64,000 nt of DNA from Nannocystales bacterium (GTDB lineage Bacteria; Myxococcota_A; Polyangia; Nannocystales; Nannocystaceae), in the NCBI GenBank assembly GCA_050633305.1, contig JBOEGF010000047.1, positions 1-64,000 on the forward strand. The letters are read 5' to 3'. Each line of letters starts with the position of its first letter. The stretch's first letter is position 1. The notes beneath the pieces are model-generated. The model worked only from the letters and a program-made list of their open reading frames with translations. It did no database searches and was not told where the DNA came from. A program made the translations under genes and the position numbers. Positions 2,495-21,075 of the stretch are shown here, one piece after another.

Positions 2495-2956
2495 ATGTTC
2501 GACTACCAACAAGCACGCAGCACGATGACCCTCGCCGAGGGTCTGCAGGAGTACTACGACGTTCACGACAACGTGACCCCACCGGAGGAACACCGCCCCG
2601 AAGCCGCGGCGCTGTTCCGCTACCACGACATGGGCCACGTCGTGTTCGGCACCACGACCAACCTGCTCGACGAGGCCCGAACCGACACATGGCTGTTGTT
2701 CGGCTGCGACGTCGGCTTCCGCGGCTACTCCGGCTACTTCAAGCTGCCCGAAGCCAAGGCAGCATTCAACTCCATCGGCTGGATGCCCCTGCTCCGCGAA
2801 GGGTGGCCGATCACCAAGGCCATGTGGAACGTTTGGCGTCGCACCAAAGCGATGCGCAAGCCCTGGCCTTGGAAGCCTGCAGACGCCGCCCTTTCCCGCC
2901 CCCTCGTGGATCTTCGCGAGGAGTGGGGTATCCACGTCGTGACCGGGCCGGCCTGA
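2495..2956 (+). CDS. Coq4-like HDxxH metal-binding protein
   Basis: FRYHDMGHVVFG...DE motif and C-terminal PLVDLREEWGI; directly downstream of regulator with RBS AAGAGG. Confidence 0.65.
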   Translation: MFDYQQARSTMTLAEGLQEYYDVHDNVTPPEEHRPEAAALFRYHDMGHVVFGTTTNLLDEARTDTWLLFGCDVGFRGYSGYFKLPEAKAAFNSIGWMPLLREGWPITKAMWNVWRRTKAMRKPWPWKPADAALSRPLVDLREEWGIHVVTGPA

Positions 2957-2965
2957 GGGGCGCCC

Positions 2966-3637
2966 CTAACGGGGGCCCACCCACCGTCCAAACTTCACGC
3001 CCAACACCCCAGAGAAACCGTCGTAGCTGCTACGCACTGTGGTGTCGAAACCGGTCACCCACGTGTAGTGCACGCCGACATAGGGGCGAACGTGTGGCGA
3101 CGCGCGGGGTGTCCACGACAAGCGAAGCCCCGTGTCGACGAACAAATTCGACGCGTCGGAGTCCCGGTCGCCAAGCAACTCGTTCTCCCACTCACTGACG
3201 CGGCGGTCGTCGGGCACCTTTCGGTCGTCCCCGTGCAGGTAGAACCCGAACCCGGCGAGGCCGACGAGCACCGGAACCTCGAGGCTCAGCGGGACGCGAC
3301 GGAAGTCGTAGTACGGCGCGACAAAGCCACCGATCACGCTCCCGTCGCTCCGCAGCTCGAGTGTCTCCTTGCCTCGATAGGTGCCCCCCTCGGGCACCGC
3401 AACCTTGAACGTCGCGGGGTTGATTGGACCGGGGCGCGCAAACCCGGCCAACCCGAACGAAAGGTGACGCCACAGCGACAAGCCGAGCTGCCAGCCCGGT
3501 CCGTGACTGAGGTGGCCCCCCAAGCCCATGACGCGCCAGTCCGCGCCGACAAACGCCCCGACCTTGGGCTCGTGCTTGGGTGAGGAGGGAGCATTCGACG
3601 CAGCCAACGTCATACAGATGATGAGTGATGCAAGCAT
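2966..3637 (-). CDS. Exported/outer-membrane beta-barrel-like protein
   Basis: Signal peptide, alternating beta strands, terminal GVLGVKFG; RBS GGAGGAG. Confidence 0.7.
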   Translation of the reverse strand: MLASLIICMTLAASNAPSSPKHEPKVGAFVGADWRVMGLGGHLSHGPGWQLGLSLWRHLSFGLAGFARPGPINPATFKVAVPEGGTYRGKETLELRSDGSVIGGFVAPYYDFRRVPLSLEVPVLVGLAGFGFYLHGDDRKVPDDRRVSEWENELLGDRDSDASNLFVDTGLRLSWTPRASPHVRPYVGVHYTWVTGFDTTVRSSYDGFSGVLGVKFGRWVGPR

Positions 3638-16188: not shown

Positions 16189-17092
16189 ATGTCTCAGTGG
16201 CTTTCCCGCTGGCTTCCATCGTCCGCGAGTGTCGAGCAGCTGGGCTCCCTCGATCTGCGCGCGGTTGTCCGAGAGTCCTCCACCATCCAACTCGATGCTG
16301 GCGAACGGCTTCGACTGGTCGCGGTCTACTTGGATGACAACGCGCTGGTGGCTGGAAGCACGAGTCTGGCGCAGTGGCAGGTGTTCTCCCGAATCTACGC
16401 AGAGGCGACGCGGCTGTGCCCCGAAGATCCATGGATCCCGAACTCCGTGGATCCCGAACTCCGTGGCAGTCACGTCGTTGAGCCTGTTCACCACGGCCGA
16501 GGACGACGAGCCGGGCAAAGATCGACTGTGGAGAATCGCCCTGGGGGCCGCCGAAACCGCGTGCGGAGTCGACGACGCGAACCCGGACCTTCGATACACG
16601 CTGGGGCACGTGCTGTATCACGTCCGCCCCAGTCGCACGACGGAGGCATTGGCTGCGTTCGAGCATGCAATCGCGCTCGACGACGGGCACGCGTGGGCCT
16701 CCCTGTACCGGGCCCACTGCCTCCACGATCTGGCTCGCTGGAACGATGCGGCACAGGCGTACGAGAGGGTCGACGCAGCCGCGTTCGCGGGACACGCTGC
16801 CTGGAGAATCGAGCTGCTGCGAGAGCAGCAGGCCTATTGCCTGCTCCGAGCCGGACATCGACAGGACGCGCTCAGGGTCTTCACCGCAGTCATCGAACGG
16901 TGCGAGGCAGCGATTTCCAGGGGCGAAGACTCGCTCAACTCCCCCGTGCTCGGTGAGCCGCCGCAGTTGCTGGTCGAGGCAGCAAAGGGAGAGCTACGGG
17001 CGGAGCTTCTCTCCCGCACCCGAGCGTTGCTCGAATCCTTCGACGAATGGCGCTCGTGGCTGAAGCTCGACGTCGACGTCGATGACGCCTGA
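16189..17092 (+). pseudogene. TPR protein split by a 16-bp tandem duplication
   Basis: N-part ends WIPNSV in one frame and resumes WIPNSVAV in the next; C-part has TPR helices (ALAAFEHAIALD, WNDAAQAYERV). Confidence 0.75.
16432..16463 (+). repeat. 16-bp tandem direct repeat (TGGATCCCGAACTCCG)x2
   Basis: Directly visible. Confidence 0.95.
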
Positions 17093-17197
17093 CCCGTCGT
17101 CGCAGCCTCCCGGCCCACGGCCGATGCCAGTGTACCTCATGGCCTCGCGGGCCTCCAGGTCGAGCACGCTGCGGGTCACCTGCGGTAGCCTCCGAGG

Positions 17198-17698
17198 GTG
17201 GGAGAGTTCGTCCTCGCGGCCGTAGAACTGGTTGAGCGCGGCGGAAAACCTGCGGCGCTCTTCGTGATGTTGCTCGGCCTCGCTCTGATCCCAACGGGAC
17301 TCTGGCTGACGTTCGTGATGCCCGGCGAGGCTCCTCTGGACGCGGCCCCGCTGGTGCACGCCGAGGAGGGCGACCGACTGTTCCTCCCCATCATGTTGGG
17401 CGTCAGCGTCGTCGGGCTGGCACTGTCGGGACTTGGAGCCGGGGCGCTGTTCGGGACGCAAGGTCGGATGCGTGGGCTCTTTCAGCGCTCGTCCTCGGTC
17501 GCGACGCAGACCGCAGAAGAGCAAGCGACTGTGTCCGCAGAGCTCCCGTTCTGGGTCTGCGGGGACTGTCGGGTTGTAGAGCCAGGCGCCTCCATCACGG
17601 CGCGTTGTACCCAGTGCGGATCGGTCTCCAGTTTCGTGCAGGTGGAGTCCGACGCGGACCGGCAGATGGCGCGGTCTGTCCTCGGGCACCTCGAATGA
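17198..17698 (+). CDS. Two-TM membrane protein with C-terminal zinc ribbon
   Basis: Two hydrophobic segments; WVCGDC...CTQCG. Confidence 0.7.
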   Translation: MGEFVLAAVELVERGGKPAALFVMLLGLALIPTGLWLTFVMPGEAPLDAAPLVHAEEGDRLFLPIMLGVSVVGLALSGLGAGALFGTQGRMRGLFQRSSSVATQTAEEQATVSAELPFWVCGDCRVVEPGASITARCTQCGSVSSFVQVESDADRQMARSVLGHLE

Positions 17699-17986
17699 CC
17701 TCACCAATGCTCGTGGCGCGTGCGCTCGTACCACGCTGCGAACAGACGCCGGAGCTCTCGGGCTGTTCAGATCTCGGCGGCCGTCTCATTGTGGAGAACT
17801 CGGCGCATTCGCCCTGGATGGTGAGTTCCTCGCCTACAACGGCGTACCGTTCGTCCTGCTTCACAACGGTCGCTTCACCTCGTCAGATCCGTTCTACCGA
17901 CTCGACCTGGCGTCCGATGGCACATGGGAACTCTCGACACCTCAATGCCGAGCGGTTTGGGCGGCCTCTCGGGACGGCGATGCTCG

Positions 17987-18454
17987 CTAGCCGGAGAGAA
18001 TCCGCTCCGCGTCCACCGCCCATTCCGGCGAACCGATGGTGAGGACGACTGCCGTCTTCGTCGTCACGGACAACGACGAATGTGGCAACGAAACGTTCTG
18101 GAACAACCACACCGTATCGACCAAAGACTCCGAATGATGGTCGGTCGTCATCACGGTCGCATCCTCGGACAGACCCAACTCGTCCCTCAACGCCACAATC
18201 ACCTCATCCGCAATGTCGTGCATGCGCGTGCACCCCGGGCCCCAAAACATCAGGTAGGACGCCCCCTGAAGCAGCAACGTGGTGAGCACGCGGTCGGCTT
18301 CTGCAACGTCCGTATCGCTGGAGTCCCACAAGACCAGGCATGCAAAGTGCTTCGAAACCGACAGCCCCTCACCGGGCACCTCCGCTGTGCACGAGACCGA
18401 CAGAGAATGCACCGCCCGGTCCAGCGAACCGCAGCCTAGGACCTTCATCGCCAT
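17987..18454 (-). CDS. Conserved hypothetical protein directly downstream of the tRNA modules
   Basis: LLLQGASYLMFWGPGCTRMHDIADE...VMTTDHHSESLVD, coding-like. Confidence 0.7.
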   Translation of the reverse strand: MAMKVLGCGSLDRAVHSLSVSCTAEVPGEGLSVSKHFACLVLWDSSDTDVAEADRVLTTLLLQGASYLMFWGPGCTRMHDIADEVIVALRDELGLSEDATVMTTDHHSESLVDTVWLFQNVSLPHSSLSVTTKTAVVLTIGSPEWAVDAERILSG

Positions 18455-18509
18455 CACAGAAGGGTACGCCGTTCCGCCAGGTTCCGAACACGCTTCTGCG
18501 CCCTGTCGA

Positions 18510-18585
18510 TGCGGGGAGCGGGGGTCGAACCCGCAAAATCTCCCGGCACTCAACCGGGCGGCTTTACCAACTTGCCCATCCCCGC
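18510..18585 (-). tRNA. Atypical tRNA-Leu(GAG), short variable arm, no CCA
   Basis: GCGGGGA/TCCCCGC acceptor + A73; D-arm GGC-AAGTTGGTAAA-GCC; AC stem CCCGG/CCGGG with loop TTGAGTG; 7-nt V region AGATTTT; T-arm GCGGG-TTCGACC-CCCGC. Confidence 0.85.
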
Positions 18586-18590
18586 GTGGA

Positions 18591-18666
18591 TGCGGAGAGC
18601 GGGGATCGAACCCGCAAAATCTCTCGGGTCTGAACCGAGCGGCTTTACCAACTTGCCCACCTCCGC
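18591..18666 (-). tRNA. Atypical tRNA-Leu(CAG), short variable arm, no CCA
   Basis: GCGGAGG/TCTCCGC + A73; same D-arm; AC stem CTCGG/CCGAG with loop TTCAGAC; T-arm GCGGG-TTCGATC-CCCGC. Confidence 0.85.
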
Positions 18667-18757
18667 GCGTGCGCGCGTGTTCGGACTCACCCCATTCGGC
18701 GATCTGGCCATGAGCGGCGAGTCCGTATTCAGTTGTTCGGAGTCCTGGCCGGGAGTC

Positions 18758-18853
18758 CTACGTAGGCGCAAGGCCCCGTCGTGCAACCAGCAGCGTCGCG
18801 CCCGGCAGGAGCCGAGTACGGAGCGGGCAGCAAACTGGGATTTGGGTCGCCAT
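18758..18853 (-). CDS. Putative leader peptide MATQIPVCCPLRTRLLPGATLLVARRGLAPT (31 aa) upstream of tRNA-Leu pair
   Basis: ATG 10 nt after -10 box; Leu codons CTC, CTC-CTG, CTG-CTG, CTT; stop lies inside a long hairpin. Confidence 0.5.
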   Translation of the reverse strand: MATQIPVCCPLRTRLLPGATLLVARRGLAPT

Positions 18854-18862
18854 TGTCCTCAC

Positions 18863-18891
18863 AACATGGTCGCGGCGCGGAAGTCTGTCAA
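18863..18891 (-). promoter_or_regulatory. Sigma70-type promoter of tRNA-Leu module
   Basis: TTGACA (18891-18886), 17-nt spacer, CATGTT (18868-18863). Confidence 0.6.
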
Positions 18892-18956
18892 ACCGAAATC
18901 AGACTCGCGAACTCGAAAGGGGTCCGTGGCCCTCAGGAAACACTGAGCAGAATCAA

Positions 18957-19029
18957 TACGGCGTCCAGGACTCGAACCTGGATCTTGGGTTTCGAACACC
19001 CGTGTCCTATCCGTTTGGACGAACGCCGC
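18957..19029 (-). tRNA. Atypical tRNA-Arg(UCG), no CCA
   Basis: GCGGCGT/ACGCCGT acceptor; D-arm GTCC-AAACGGATA-GGAC with A after GG (Arg identity A20); loop GTTCGAA; T-arm CCAGG-TTCGAGT-CCTGG; one C-A mismatch in AC stem. Confidence 0.8.
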
Positions 19030-19034
19030 AACGA

Positions 19035-19106
19035 TGCGACGTCCAGGATTCGAACCTGGATTTCGAGGTTCGCCCCCTCGTGTCCTGTCCGTTGGACGAA
19101 CGCCGC
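19035..19106 (-). tRNA. Atypical tRNA-Arg(GCG), G32/G33, no CCA
   Basis: GCGGCGT/ACGTCGC acceptor; GTCC/GGAC D-stem; AC stem CGAGG/CCTCG with loop GGGCGAA; T-arm CCAGG-TTCGAAT-CCTGG. Confidence 0.8.
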
Positions 19107-19145
19107 AATGGTTCGACGAGTTCGGTTGTGTCCCCACGTTCGTCG

Positions 19146-19292
19146 CTACGCCAGGTCGCCGTCGGGCCGGACGGACAGCGTGGGCGTTGGACGCAAGCCA
19201 CTGGCGACAGACGAACAACACATCCCCTCGAGCGCGTACCCCATGGAGGGCTCGCTGCTCGCCAAGGCGACGTCGTTGTTCGATGCGGTCAC
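19146..19292 (-). CDS. Putative leader ORF (48 aa) upstream of tRNA-Arg pair
   Basis: GTG 10 nt after -10 box (same spacing as Leu module); TAG inside 3' arm of hairpin; only two Arg codons. Confidence 0.3.
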   Translation of the reverse strand: MTASNNDVALASSEPSMGYALEGMCCSSVASGLRPTPTLSVRPDGDLA

Positions 19293-19301
19293 AGTACGAG
19301 G

Positions 19302-19330
19302 TGGCTAGCGCCGAGCTCGGGCGCTGTCAA
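19302..19330 (-). promoter_or_regulatory. Sigma70-type promoter of tRNA-Arg module
   Basis: TTGACA (19330-19325), 17-nt spacer containing palindrome CCGAGCTCGG, TAGCCA (19307-19302). Confidence 0.5.
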
Positions 19331-19416
19331 CGCGGATTCCCAACCGAGTTCAAACTGGAGAACAATTCGAACGGCTCTTCGTCGCACACACAACTGTGAC
19401 ACGCTACGCTCAGAGG

Positions 19417-20383
19417 GTGCGTACAGACGTGGACGCTGCCGTATGCCTGCGATGGCGCTTTGAGCAGCTCGCACACGCCACCTCTGACCTCGTGCGCGTG
19501 AGCCATCGGGACGATGTCACCCTCGCGCTCCTCGCCAACGCTGGCGAGTCGGGCTTCTCCACATGCTGGCCCAGGGGGTCACGCCTGCTTCTCGACGAGT
19601 TCGAGCGGGCATGGGACGCCGGCACAGGAGCGCCCGACATGCGGCTTGCCGACGCCTTCGCGGCCGCCAGCACCTCTTTCTGCGAGAACGCAGCAGCTCT
19701 GCACCCACCGGAACCCGACATCCCCGGCGGCCTCTCCTACGGAACGCTTCTGGCGGTCGCGGTCGCAGGCTCGAGGGTCGAGGGTCGAGGTTGCCTGGGT
19801 CGGTGGGGCCCGGGCGGTGCTCGTCCGCGGCCACACAGCCGAGGCGTTCACCCGTCCGCACCCCCTCCTCGAACAGGTTCTCGAGGTCGGCCTGGACCCA
19901 CGGTCGAACGCCTCATGGCCGATTGACATCCTGAGGCGCACCATCGGTCCGGGCGACACAAACGACGCCGGCCCGGACTACGCGCGCTTCGAGTTTCGCG
20001 CGGGCGATACGCTCGTCCTGCTCTCGAACTCGGGGATGCAAAAGCCACCAGTCAGCCTCAACACAATAGCGGACATGGTTGCACTCGAGCCGGACGTCGA
20101 CGCTGCAGCTTCGGCGGTGACGTCCGCCGAATACGCGAACAGCACCCCCTCGATCGCCGCCTCGCGGTACTACGCCCAAAAGGGTGATAGCGATGCACGG
20201 CGACGACATCGACGACGCGACCCCAACCGCCCTCCCGTAGACGAGCGGCTTGGAGTTCCAGCACCGCATCGCATCGCATCGCATCGCATCGCATCGCATC
20301 GCATCGACGATGCCCTCCCGGCTTCAAGTTCGCAGGTACGATCCAGGCCCTCCGCCGGGGACGGCGGTTCAAGGTGGAGGTAG
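19417..20383 (+). pseudogene. Degenerate PP2C-like phosphatase, frameshifted by 7-bp duplication
   Basis: GTLLAVAVAGSRVE|VAWVGGARAVLVRG...ILRRTIG...GDTLVLLSNSG; TCGAGGG duplicated at 19771-19790; 3' end uncertain. Confidence 0.6.
20266..20305 (+). repeat. Pentanucleotide microsatellite (GCATC)x8
   Basis: Directly visible. Confidence 0.95.
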
Positions 20384-20520
20384 AGCCGAACGCTCGAGGC
20401 CCTCCCCTGCCAAACCGCGACATGCTCAAACCGGTCCCTGGGAACGAGTTTCCTGCGCGTCTCTTGAGATAGACCTGAGATTGTTCACTGGACACATTCC
20501 GGTCACGGTGCAGGAGAGCT

Positions 20521-21075
20521 ATGCGTGTCGCCCCAATGCCAAGTATGCGGTGCCAGGTCGGAAAACCGGGCGTTCTCGGCGTCGTAGACCTTAACTGCGG
20601 CTGGTACAGCCTCCGTTCGGTCGTCGGCTACCACTTCCGGCGGATCACTGGCCAGGACATGAGACATAGCCACCTTCCAAAGCCGACACTTGCAGCATTC
20701 CACCCGCGCGCCGATCTACCAGCTGACCTTCAGCCGCGCGTCACCGTTGACGACAAGCCCCGCAACGTCGGCGACTGGATCACGCGACTTCAGACCAACG
20801 GGCCGATCGTCGTCTCGGGGAAACTCGGGGCCGCATCGTGGGGCCGAGTTCCGGGTCTTGGGACCAAGCTAGGCGTGGGGCACTTCATCCTCATCGTCGG
20901 AGCACACGCTGGGCCATGGGCAGGTGGGGGTCAACTCATCTACAAGGACCCCCTCCAGGGCGATCATATTCGCCATCACTCGTTCACCGAGATGGATAGT
21001 CGCATCGACAATGATGTGTACTACGTGACTCGTCAAAACGCGCCCGCCCTGCTCCACGCGCTCCAGGCAACCTAG
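20521..21075 (+). CDS. Papain-fold cysteine peptidase-like protein (C39/C70-like)
   Basis: Q...NCGWYS, GPIVV, GHFILIVG, IYKDP give a Cys-His-Asp pattern. Confidence 0.65.
   Translation: MRVAPMPSMRCQVGKPGVLGVVDLNCGWYSLRSVVGYHFRRITGQDMRHSHLPKPTLAAFHPRADLPADLQPRVTVDDKPRNVGDWITRLQTNGPIVVSGKLGAASWGRVPGLGTKLGVGHFILIVGAHAGPWAGGGQLIYKDPLQGDHIRHHSFTEMDSRIDNDVYYVTRQNAPALLHALQAT

Follow-up and report, generated by a model that had tools for sequence, protein, structure and literature searches.

The DNA analysed here (the window) is a stretch of 64,000 nucleotides, positions 1 to 64,000 of the forward strand of contig JBOEGF010000047.1 (assembly GCA_050633305.1), from a Nannocystales bacterium with an 11 Mb genome of 66% G+C. 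A pair of accessory tRNA-Leu genes is found on the reverse strand, preceded by a promoter and by a small open reading frame (ORF):

18886..18891, reverse strand: -35 hexamer of the Leu unit, TTGACA, identical in four homologues
18863..18868, reverse strand: -10 hexamer of the Leu unit, CATGTT, 17 nt past the -35 hexamer and 9 nt ahead of the ATG
18758..18853, reverse strand: Leu leader ORF, 31 codons with 6 Leu; ATG at 18853, TAG at 18760-18758
18591..18666, reverse strand: accessory tRNA-Leu(CAG), 76 nt, short variable arm, A37 (G37 in the housekeeping copy)
18510..18585, reverse strand: accessory tRNA-Leu(GAG), 76 nt, short variable arm, U37; the sole Leu(GAG) gene of the assembly

The TTGACA-17-CATGTT promoter lies 196 nt upstream of the Leu tRNAs. 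The ORF is the first thing transcribed from it, and is separated from tRNA-Leu(CAG) by 91 nt. Where an ordinary tRNA gene has a recognisable promoter, the distance between the two is in most cases 10-40 nt. A strict sigma70 consensus scan, which no promoter passed, did not list the Leu-unit promoter; a strict terminator scan found no terminator within the leader. Since the -10 hexamer is only 9 nt ahead of the ATG, the leader is probably translated from leaderless or near-leaderless RNA. In an Rfam scan of positions 17000-21000, tRNAs alone passed the gathering scores; there was no T-box and no leader family. The leader region folds slightly better than shuffled sequences (z = -1.56).

The Leu codons of the leader are CTC at codon 11, CTC-CTG at 15-16, CTG-CTG at 21-22 and CTT at 28. 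A preliminary description of this DNA had reported the 31-codon ORF with six Leu codons upstream of the tRNA-Leu pair, and it is present as claimed. Its caution that the enrichment is modest was well placed: six Leu in 30 residues has P=0.012 against random-frame composition and P of about 0.06 (by hand) against a coding Leu share of 9.5%, which for a single locus is barely above chance. It had also pointed out that every Leu codon can be read by the GAG and CAG tRNAs and that UUR and CUA codons are missing. This is true, but uninformative as evidence; six codons drawn only from CTC, CTG and CTT have a probability of 0.37 under the codon usage of the genome.

Both window Leu tRNAs are full cloverleaves (51-56 bits). 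The genome keeps separate long-arm tRNA-Leu genes with anticodons TAA, CAA, CAG, TAG and AAG. CUY codons are served by a housekeeping Leu(AAG) tRNA (G000:C76:3-87), which would need inosine at position 34. Directly behind the Leu tRNA pair, in the same orientation, begins an ORF with a DUF7684 domain (17987-18457, reverse strand), which may share its transcript. Pfam matches were found for four of 12 neighbouring ORFs; none is tied to RNA repair or translation except a DEDD-type exonuclease 6 kb off. About nine copies of a 5-nt unit, ATCGC, occupy the intergenic region after the upstream ORF (20258-20306).

A second unit, with two atypical tRNA-Arg genes and the same geometry, sits just upstream of the Leu unit; its frame is conserved in one homologous record, L078:

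19325..19330, reverse strand: -35 hexamer of the Arg unit; its -10 hexamer lies 9 nt ahead of the GTG
19146..19292, reverse strand: Arg-unit leader ORF, 48 codons with 2-3 Arg, frame conserved in L078
19033..19107, reverse strand: accessory tRNA-Arg(GCG), G33 here, U33 in L078
18956..19030, reverse strand: accessory tRNA-Arg(TCG)

The Arg leader is not Arg-rich (z of -1.2 in the window unit and -1.4 in its L078 homologue), and the Arg unit is an exception to the codon-matching rule set out below. An Arg-rich alternative frame before the Arg pair was rejected, having no start codon at the promoter-proximal place. The accessory tRNA-Arg(GCG), with G33 in place of the U33 seen in L078, is possibly damaged.

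The Leu leader has three homologues (in L078, L080 and L085). They retain the promoter, the 9-nt offset and the reading frame, with indels of 3 and 12 nt, and carry 6, 8 and 8 Leu codons. All six Leu codons of the window leader are intact and agree with L078; over the stop and the five sense codons before it, the window leader and the three homologues are nucleotide-identical. A search of a phage collection gave no match to the leader, only short tRNA-body matches in 8 records. Downstream of the Leu codons, four RNA elements can be drawn:

18801..18815, reverse strand: 5' arm of a long hairpin, codons 13-18; pairs with 18737-18753 if no ribosome covers the arm
18739..18758, reverse strand: H2, a hairpin of 7 bp that begins at the stop codon; its CGGCC loop is invariant, and the window copy has two mismatched pairs
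18726..18737, reverse strand: single-stranded A/C-rich motif with the core AACTGAA, a core found in 7 of 38 leader tails
18682..18725, reverse strand: H3, the final hairpin, -25.9 kcal/mol, no U-tract, unswitched by ribosome position

The homologue comparison proposed in the preliminary description thus turned out in favour of the leader: frame and Leu codons are kept, and the stop-codon hairpin covaries. In H2, 26 of 28 cells are paired and five of the seven pairs have changed on both sides, a result reached in 0/500 shuffles, with four sequences only. This hairpin had been overlooked, as had the promoter, the short variable arms and the matching leaders at other tRNA clusters. Across units, the median energy of a hairpin at the stop codon is -9.3 kcal/mol, against -7.5 for shuffles and -7.7 for 80 ordinary gene stops (p=0.01), and 16 of 40 units reach -10 or lower compared with 25 of the 80 ordinary stops. 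On these figures, a stop-codon hairpin as a feature of all units is weakly supported.

AACTGAA is the most enriched 7-mer of the leader tails (0.1 occurrences expected) and is also present in non-homologous Pro, Ser and Arg/Pro/His units. In a comparison of rRNA spacers it resembles the 3' half of an element that follows the rRNA-operon tRNA-Ala in relatives; we take that element to be boxA-like. The long hairpin between ORF and tail, which had been described before, has all 14 mapped pairs in the window, but its conservation is partial (14, 11, 11 and 9 of 14 pairs in the four homologues). In the folding model it pairs at 0.7 without a ribosome in both the window and L078, and it may be the no-ribosome alternative to H2. 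A hairpin of variable sequence occupies the place of H3 in all four homologues. That H3 lacks a U-tract was seen correctly (0 U in the following 8 nt); an intrinsic terminator with a U-tract is absent at the window locus and its three homologues.

Codon matching was scored across genomes by a blind rule, which takes the best promoter-like site at least 90 nt before the first tRNA and then the first start codon. Clusters were gathered by tRNA similarity and by listing the tRNAs of 13 genomes; 80 regions were fetched by tRNA positions and scores, not by upstream sequence. There were 165 de-duplicated clusters. A distant promoter (at least 90 nt) was found in 57, a promoter less than 90 nt away, leaving no room for a leader, in 49 clusters of mostly ordinary tRNAs, and 59 were unscored for want of a clear promoter or of enough upstream DNA. 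De-duplication by shared tRNA sequence dropped some units, for example the Leu unit of L078 and L036. An ORF followed in 53 of the 57 distant-promoter clusters, giving 53 units from 10 genomes and 10 metagenome contigs. The number of tRNA genes per unit ranges from 1 to 16 in relatives; the window Leu unit has two, for one amino acid.

Leaders match their arrays. Over all 53 units, in which related genomes are not independent samples, mean cognate enrichment is z 2.77 against 0.01±0.20 for permuted pairings (0/20,000 permutations); with one unit per amino-acid set (29 units) it is 2.59 (0/20,000). The two other frames of the same leader DNA, again for all 53 units, give z of 0.04 and 0.02. Each of the 20 amino acids is commoner in the leader when its tRNA is in the array: the residue share with and without the cognate tRNA is 0.19 and 0.05 for Leu, 0.31 and 0.02 for Gln, and 0.038 and 0.005 for Trp. 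Single-amino-acid enrichment is not significant for Phe, Val and His. Units without Leu tRNAs score no lower than units with them (z 2.97 vs 2.40). Eleven of the 53 units have z below 1.64, and five lie at or below 0, including the Arg units of the window and L078.

From start to end of the leader, the cognate share by fifths is 0.11, 0.26, 0.43, 0.46 and 0.42. The match extends weakly to isoacceptors, with 482 of 570 codons matched against 461±7 expected (13/5,000). Six units with an evidently wrong ORF or an ordinary gene were left out of the isoacceptor, leader-fifths and anticodon-loop tests; seven were left out of the leader-tRNA duplex, AACTGAA and stop-hairpin tests for the same reason. 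Individual cases are plain to see. In L127, 31 of 44 leader residues are Ala, Cys, Ser or Trp, ahead of an Ala-Cys-Ser-Trp array; L038, L101 and L129 have 4 Gln in 10 residues ahead of Gln pairs. Some unscored clusters (L017, L020, L026, L027 and C13) have matching leaders by eye.

The genome that supplied the window contains further atypical clusters, Pro-Gln-His (C13), Ser-Ser-Ser-Tyr (C27) and Lys-Asn (C10), each with a leader for its own amino acids. When its 50 tRNA clusters are ranked by whichever upstream ATG frame has the highest cognate enrichment, four accessory units on four contigs come first: Pro-Gln-His, Lys-Asn, Leu-Leu and Ser-Ser-Ser-Tyr (P of 3.5e-5, 0.011, 0.012 and 0.034). 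The fifth is the housekeeping Leu(AAG) (0.038). The earlier suggestion that a cognate-codon leader governs tRNA genes, not enzymes, draws strong support from this comparison, and the arrangement is far more general than had been claimed. Sequence comparison identifies the window leader as a selected, codon-matched reading frame.

The tRNAs of the arrays are unusual. By their sequences, those of the window and of the arrays are supernumerary and atypical, with short-arm Leu tRNAs and altered anticodon loops. Short arms are found in 30 of 41 array tRNA-Leu genes and in one of six ordinary ones. Loop positions 32, 37 and 38 distinguish array tRNAs from the housekeeping isoacceptors. Among tRNAs with G36, A37 is found in 52 of 96 from arrays and two of 19 with short promoters; among those with U36, A37-A38 is kept in 14 of 36 and 20 of 23, respectively. 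G37 is the substrate of TrmD and U36-A37-A38 is the t6A site. Arg(GCG) and Leu(GAG) read codons which are otherwise served by the inosine-dependent ACG and AAG tRNAs. Rare A34 anticodons also occur in accessory arrays: Thr AGT (L097, L110), Ser AGA (L021) and Leu AAG (L066, L067, L073, L086). The calls in L100 are limited to Arg, Ser, Gly, Ala, Trp and Cys. A Glu-Lys pair is preceded by a tRNA-like gene of 80 nt whose anticodon loop is enlarged (G000:C32:152651-152730); ARAGORN calls this gene Asn(ATT), its body looks Glu-like, and a similar call is present in the same-genus L142.

The short-arm tRNA-Leu type is narrowly distributed. Its pattern was found in 9 of 400 genomes of the class, all from the same family, and within the family in 8 of 70 genomes besides the source genome. 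The same kind of tRNA-Leu is present in a Nannocystaceae assembly and in the cultured species Plesiocystis pacifica (L017), which carries a Leu/Arg unit. Matched leaders were also found in G401, L020 and contigs of 44-58% G+C of unknown origin. The long arrays of two Micromonospora genomes (L016:1-270 and L022) have first a 43-codon ORF containing 19 of the 20 amino acids and then a U-tract terminator; 1/586 and 3/795 control windows reach 19 of 20. This ORF is a candidate all-codon attenuator for L-arrays, applying the same logic to a near-complete array. ORFs of HNH type lie inside Micromonospora arrays, and the array of Micromonospora lupini holds a stretch (L023, ~2905-3090) that resembles a shortened RNase P RNA.

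The explanation which best accounts for these data, and which we hold with good confidence, is a leader-based feedback, specific to particular codons, by which slow decoding turns on back-up tRNAs. A sigma70-type promoter would start an RNA opening with a short ORF rich in the codons of the downstream tRNAs. While charged, functional tRNA-Leu is plentiful, the ribosome would run on to the stop and expression of the spare tRNAs would remain low. Slow reading of Leu codons would make the ribosome wait in the ORF, the RNA behind it would refold, and the spare tRNA-Leu genes would be transcribed or matured. The new tRNA-Leu would relieve the stall, which would make the loop one of negative feedback. 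We infer the translation of the window leader, the direction of control and the trigger. As trigger, a loss of working tRNA through anticodon nucleases or failed modification would be likelier than amino-acid starvation, since extra tRNA can replace cut or unmodified tRNA but cannot cure a lack of amino acid. The window locus would then be one module of a general promoter-leader-tRNA design that amounts to a second, conditional tRNA set.

Some relatives of the window unit fold in the classical manner. By rule, a U-tract terminator is present in 8 of 53 units, two of them weak. The ribosome was modelled as an unpaired footprint ending 10 nt beyond the A-site codon. In five of seven U-tract relatives, a ribosome held 16 codons before the stop on the unit's own ORF disrupts the terminator; formation falls to 0.00, 0.04, 0.05, 0.38 and 0.61, compared with 0.63-0.92 for swapped ORFs. 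Two of these five are from the same genome and share a terminator. With the ribosome at the stop the terminator re-forms in all five (0.7-1.0). The other two, L005 and L086, have no antiterminator and are unswitched. The folding models thus support the five as classical attenuators, with terminator/antiterminator logic. In L079, L098, L097, L122, L123 and L128 the gap from stop to tRNA is just 6-29 nt; this leaves no room for a terminator, and in the shortest cases a terminating ribosome would touch the 5' end of the tRNA.

The window locus has an ORF between promoter and tRNA genes and conserved cognate codons (modest there). It is not filed as a classical attenuator, because the terminator and antiterminator tests fail there. 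What changes with ribosome position in the folding model is H2, which makes H2 together with the AACTGAA motif the best candidate for an 'on' signal. Without a ribosome H2 forms at 0.0, 0.0, 0.5 and 1.0 in the four homologues; with a ribosome in the last third of the ORF it forms at 0.8-1.0. It is melted by a ribosome at the stop, by construction of the model, and in the window it loses out to other pairings for ribosome positions at codons 9-21. The signal would be intact only while the ribosome sits in the later Leu codons. Action of H2 and AACTGAA on elongating RNA polymerase is our preferred candidate for the window effector, at roughly even chances on the folding model. A step in precursor processing or stability comes next, and is appreciably less probable.

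The alternative that survives best, though we think it improbable, is that the system is real in the lineage and the window copy is a decaying cassette, acquired horizontally from a phage or mobile element, whose switch is dead. Its spread is patchy: none of six same-genus genomes matches the locus, and two same-genus genomes have only 44 tRNA matches each. It is flanked by unrelated hypothetical genes, Arg(GCG) has G33 where L078 has U33, H2 carries two mismatches and the Arg leader shows no Arg enrichment. However, the window copy still has its promoter, spacing and frame and all six Leu codons intact, in agreement with L078; both Leu tRNAs score as full cloverleaves at 51-56 bits, and four matched units persist in the genome, on four contigs.

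The preliminary description had proposed another switch, in which three GGACTC copies compete for one complement and a TCCGTA/TACGGA pairing excludes the final hairpin, so that these pairings decide H3 and H3 acts as a terminator or processing gate. We regard this as very improbable. The window sequence allows the pairings, and all four homologues have a hairpin at the place of H3. However, GGACTC occurs 3, 1, 0 and 0 times in the four, and the TCCGTA/TACGGA pair is found in the window alone. H3 also does not behave as a switched element: it forms at 0.98-1.0 whatever the ribosome position (0.94-0.98 for the window and its homologues under a stalled ribosome), not below swapped- or shuffled-ORF controls, and the window model contains no antiterminator that would exclude it on stalling. 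H3 has no U-tract, although in this genome the ends of ordinary tRNA genes are hairpins followed by U-tracts.

Slighter still is the case for control at the level of tRNA folding, with the leader sequestering the 5' acceptor strand of the tRNA and a stalled ribosome freeing it. In ribosome-free window RNA the acceptor strand does pair with the leader (0.8), and a ribosome covering codon 6 or beyond releases it; the leader-tRNA duplex score is -17.2. The pairing is absent from L080 and L085 in the folding model, and as a general mechanism it was rejected: over 46 units, pairing with the unit's own tRNAs is no stronger than in permuted combinations (p=0.71).

Rho-dependent attenuation of the mgtL/tnaC type, where ribosome position hides or exposes a Rho loading site, had been suggested for want of a U-tract. 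The boxA-like motif and the presence of nusB in the window genome would fit it. It is largely refuted, and we give it hardly any weight: the RNA-binding domain of Rho turned up in 0 of 71 genomes of the family, 42 being at least 90% complete, in a search whose controls were positive in 9 of 14. The full-length rho model gives a weak 68-bit match in the window genome and a true match in G401. Such a negative result is unusual for Gram-negative bacteria of such genome size. An RNase J-like gene is present in the window genome, below the curated cut-off. Finally, mere chance, a GC-rich spacer holding a short ORF with a few Leu codons, is refuted by the conserved frame and Leu codons of the homologues and by the permutation and frame controls over 53 units, even with a single-locus P of just 0.01-0.06.

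Codon-specific feedback on back-up tRNAs may be part of something larger. In a fuller version, which we put forward tentatively and at somewhat less than even chances, there is a complete second tRNA set, divided into amino-acid modules which each test their own codons on a leader and come on only while these are slowly decoded. The loops of these tRNAs would avoid anticodon nucleases or missing modifications, and the whole would constitute a codon-resolved self-repair of the tRNA pool; at the window an undescribed effector (H2 and AACTGAA) would act without Rho and without a U-tract terminator.

Leader-peptide attenuators are also known from leu, thr, ilv and pheM-pheST, and the thr and ilv leaders match their pathways. 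The trp and his operons have ribosome-mediated leader-peptide transcription attenuators (PMC1183508). Like these amino-acid-operon systems, the units described here have a promoter, a short ORF with cognate codons and alternative RNA folds; the U-tract relatives have the same polarity in folding models, and the multivalent leaders match multi-amino-acid arrays as the thr and ilv leaders match their pathways. They differ in that the output is not an enzyme but the tRNA reading the sensing codons, so that the loop closes on decoding capacity. They also differ in that the modules span all 20 amino acids, and in that most units have no U-tract terminator, with Rho not found in the family.

The mycobacterial 'Cys ribulon' is described as a set of polycysteine, leaderless short-ORF attenuators (10.1101/834739). 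As there, the sensing ORFs here are near-leaderless, occur at several independent loci and would act by ribosome pausing. In the mycobacterial account a stalled ribosome frees the ribosome binding site of a protein gene (10.1101/834739), whereas tRNA genes have none; and those leaders serve one amino acid, the present ones all 20. The trn operon of Anabaena and other L-arrays are reported as alternative tRNA sets (PMC8421152); the one in Anabaena is silent until translation is impaired (PMC8421152), under control of promoter direct repeats (PMC8421152) and the TrcR repressor (PMC10272220). Like L-arrays, the tRNA genes here are supernumerary and patchily distributed; unlike them, the arrays are short and split by amino acid, each with its own codon-matched leader. 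The terms 'leader', 'attenuat' and 'uORF' are absent from the main text of PMC8421152 and of a tRNA-array paper (PMC12803027). For phage tRNAs, changes in the anticodon loop are proposed to be an escape from host anticodon nucleases (PMC10264068). Array tRNAs likewise have altered loop positions, and any nuclease resistance is putative; unlike the phage tRNAs of PMC10264068, they are encoded by chromosomal bacterial genes. The phage account concerns the tRNA sequences, and no leader control was seen in it.

A full-text literature search, of main texts with few subscription papers among them, turned up no account of leader ORFs that match the tRNA genes behind them; the array datasets of PMC8421152 could list some of the arrays. 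The design is apparently undescribed: a known sensor wired to a new output. What is new here is the bacterial chromosomal form, partitioned by amino acid, the blind statistical test, and the variant free of both Rho and terminator. The lack of Rho matches and of U-tract terminators implies an attenuation or RNA-maturation step which has not been described. Control of bacterial tRNA genes is generally placed at the promoter, through growth rate, stringent control or a repressor. A repressor-controlled tRNA array is documented in PMC8421152. A tRNA gene metered by the decoding speed of its own codons would, if the model is true, be a direct, codon-specific homeostasis of the tRNA pool. Supernumerary tRNA arrays, whose role has been in question for a long time, would gain a function open to testing, and there would be natural codon-specific sensors for all 20 amino acids. 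The model predicts which stress induces each array, and the Leu/Arg unit carried by the cultured Plesiocystis pacifica makes a test practical.
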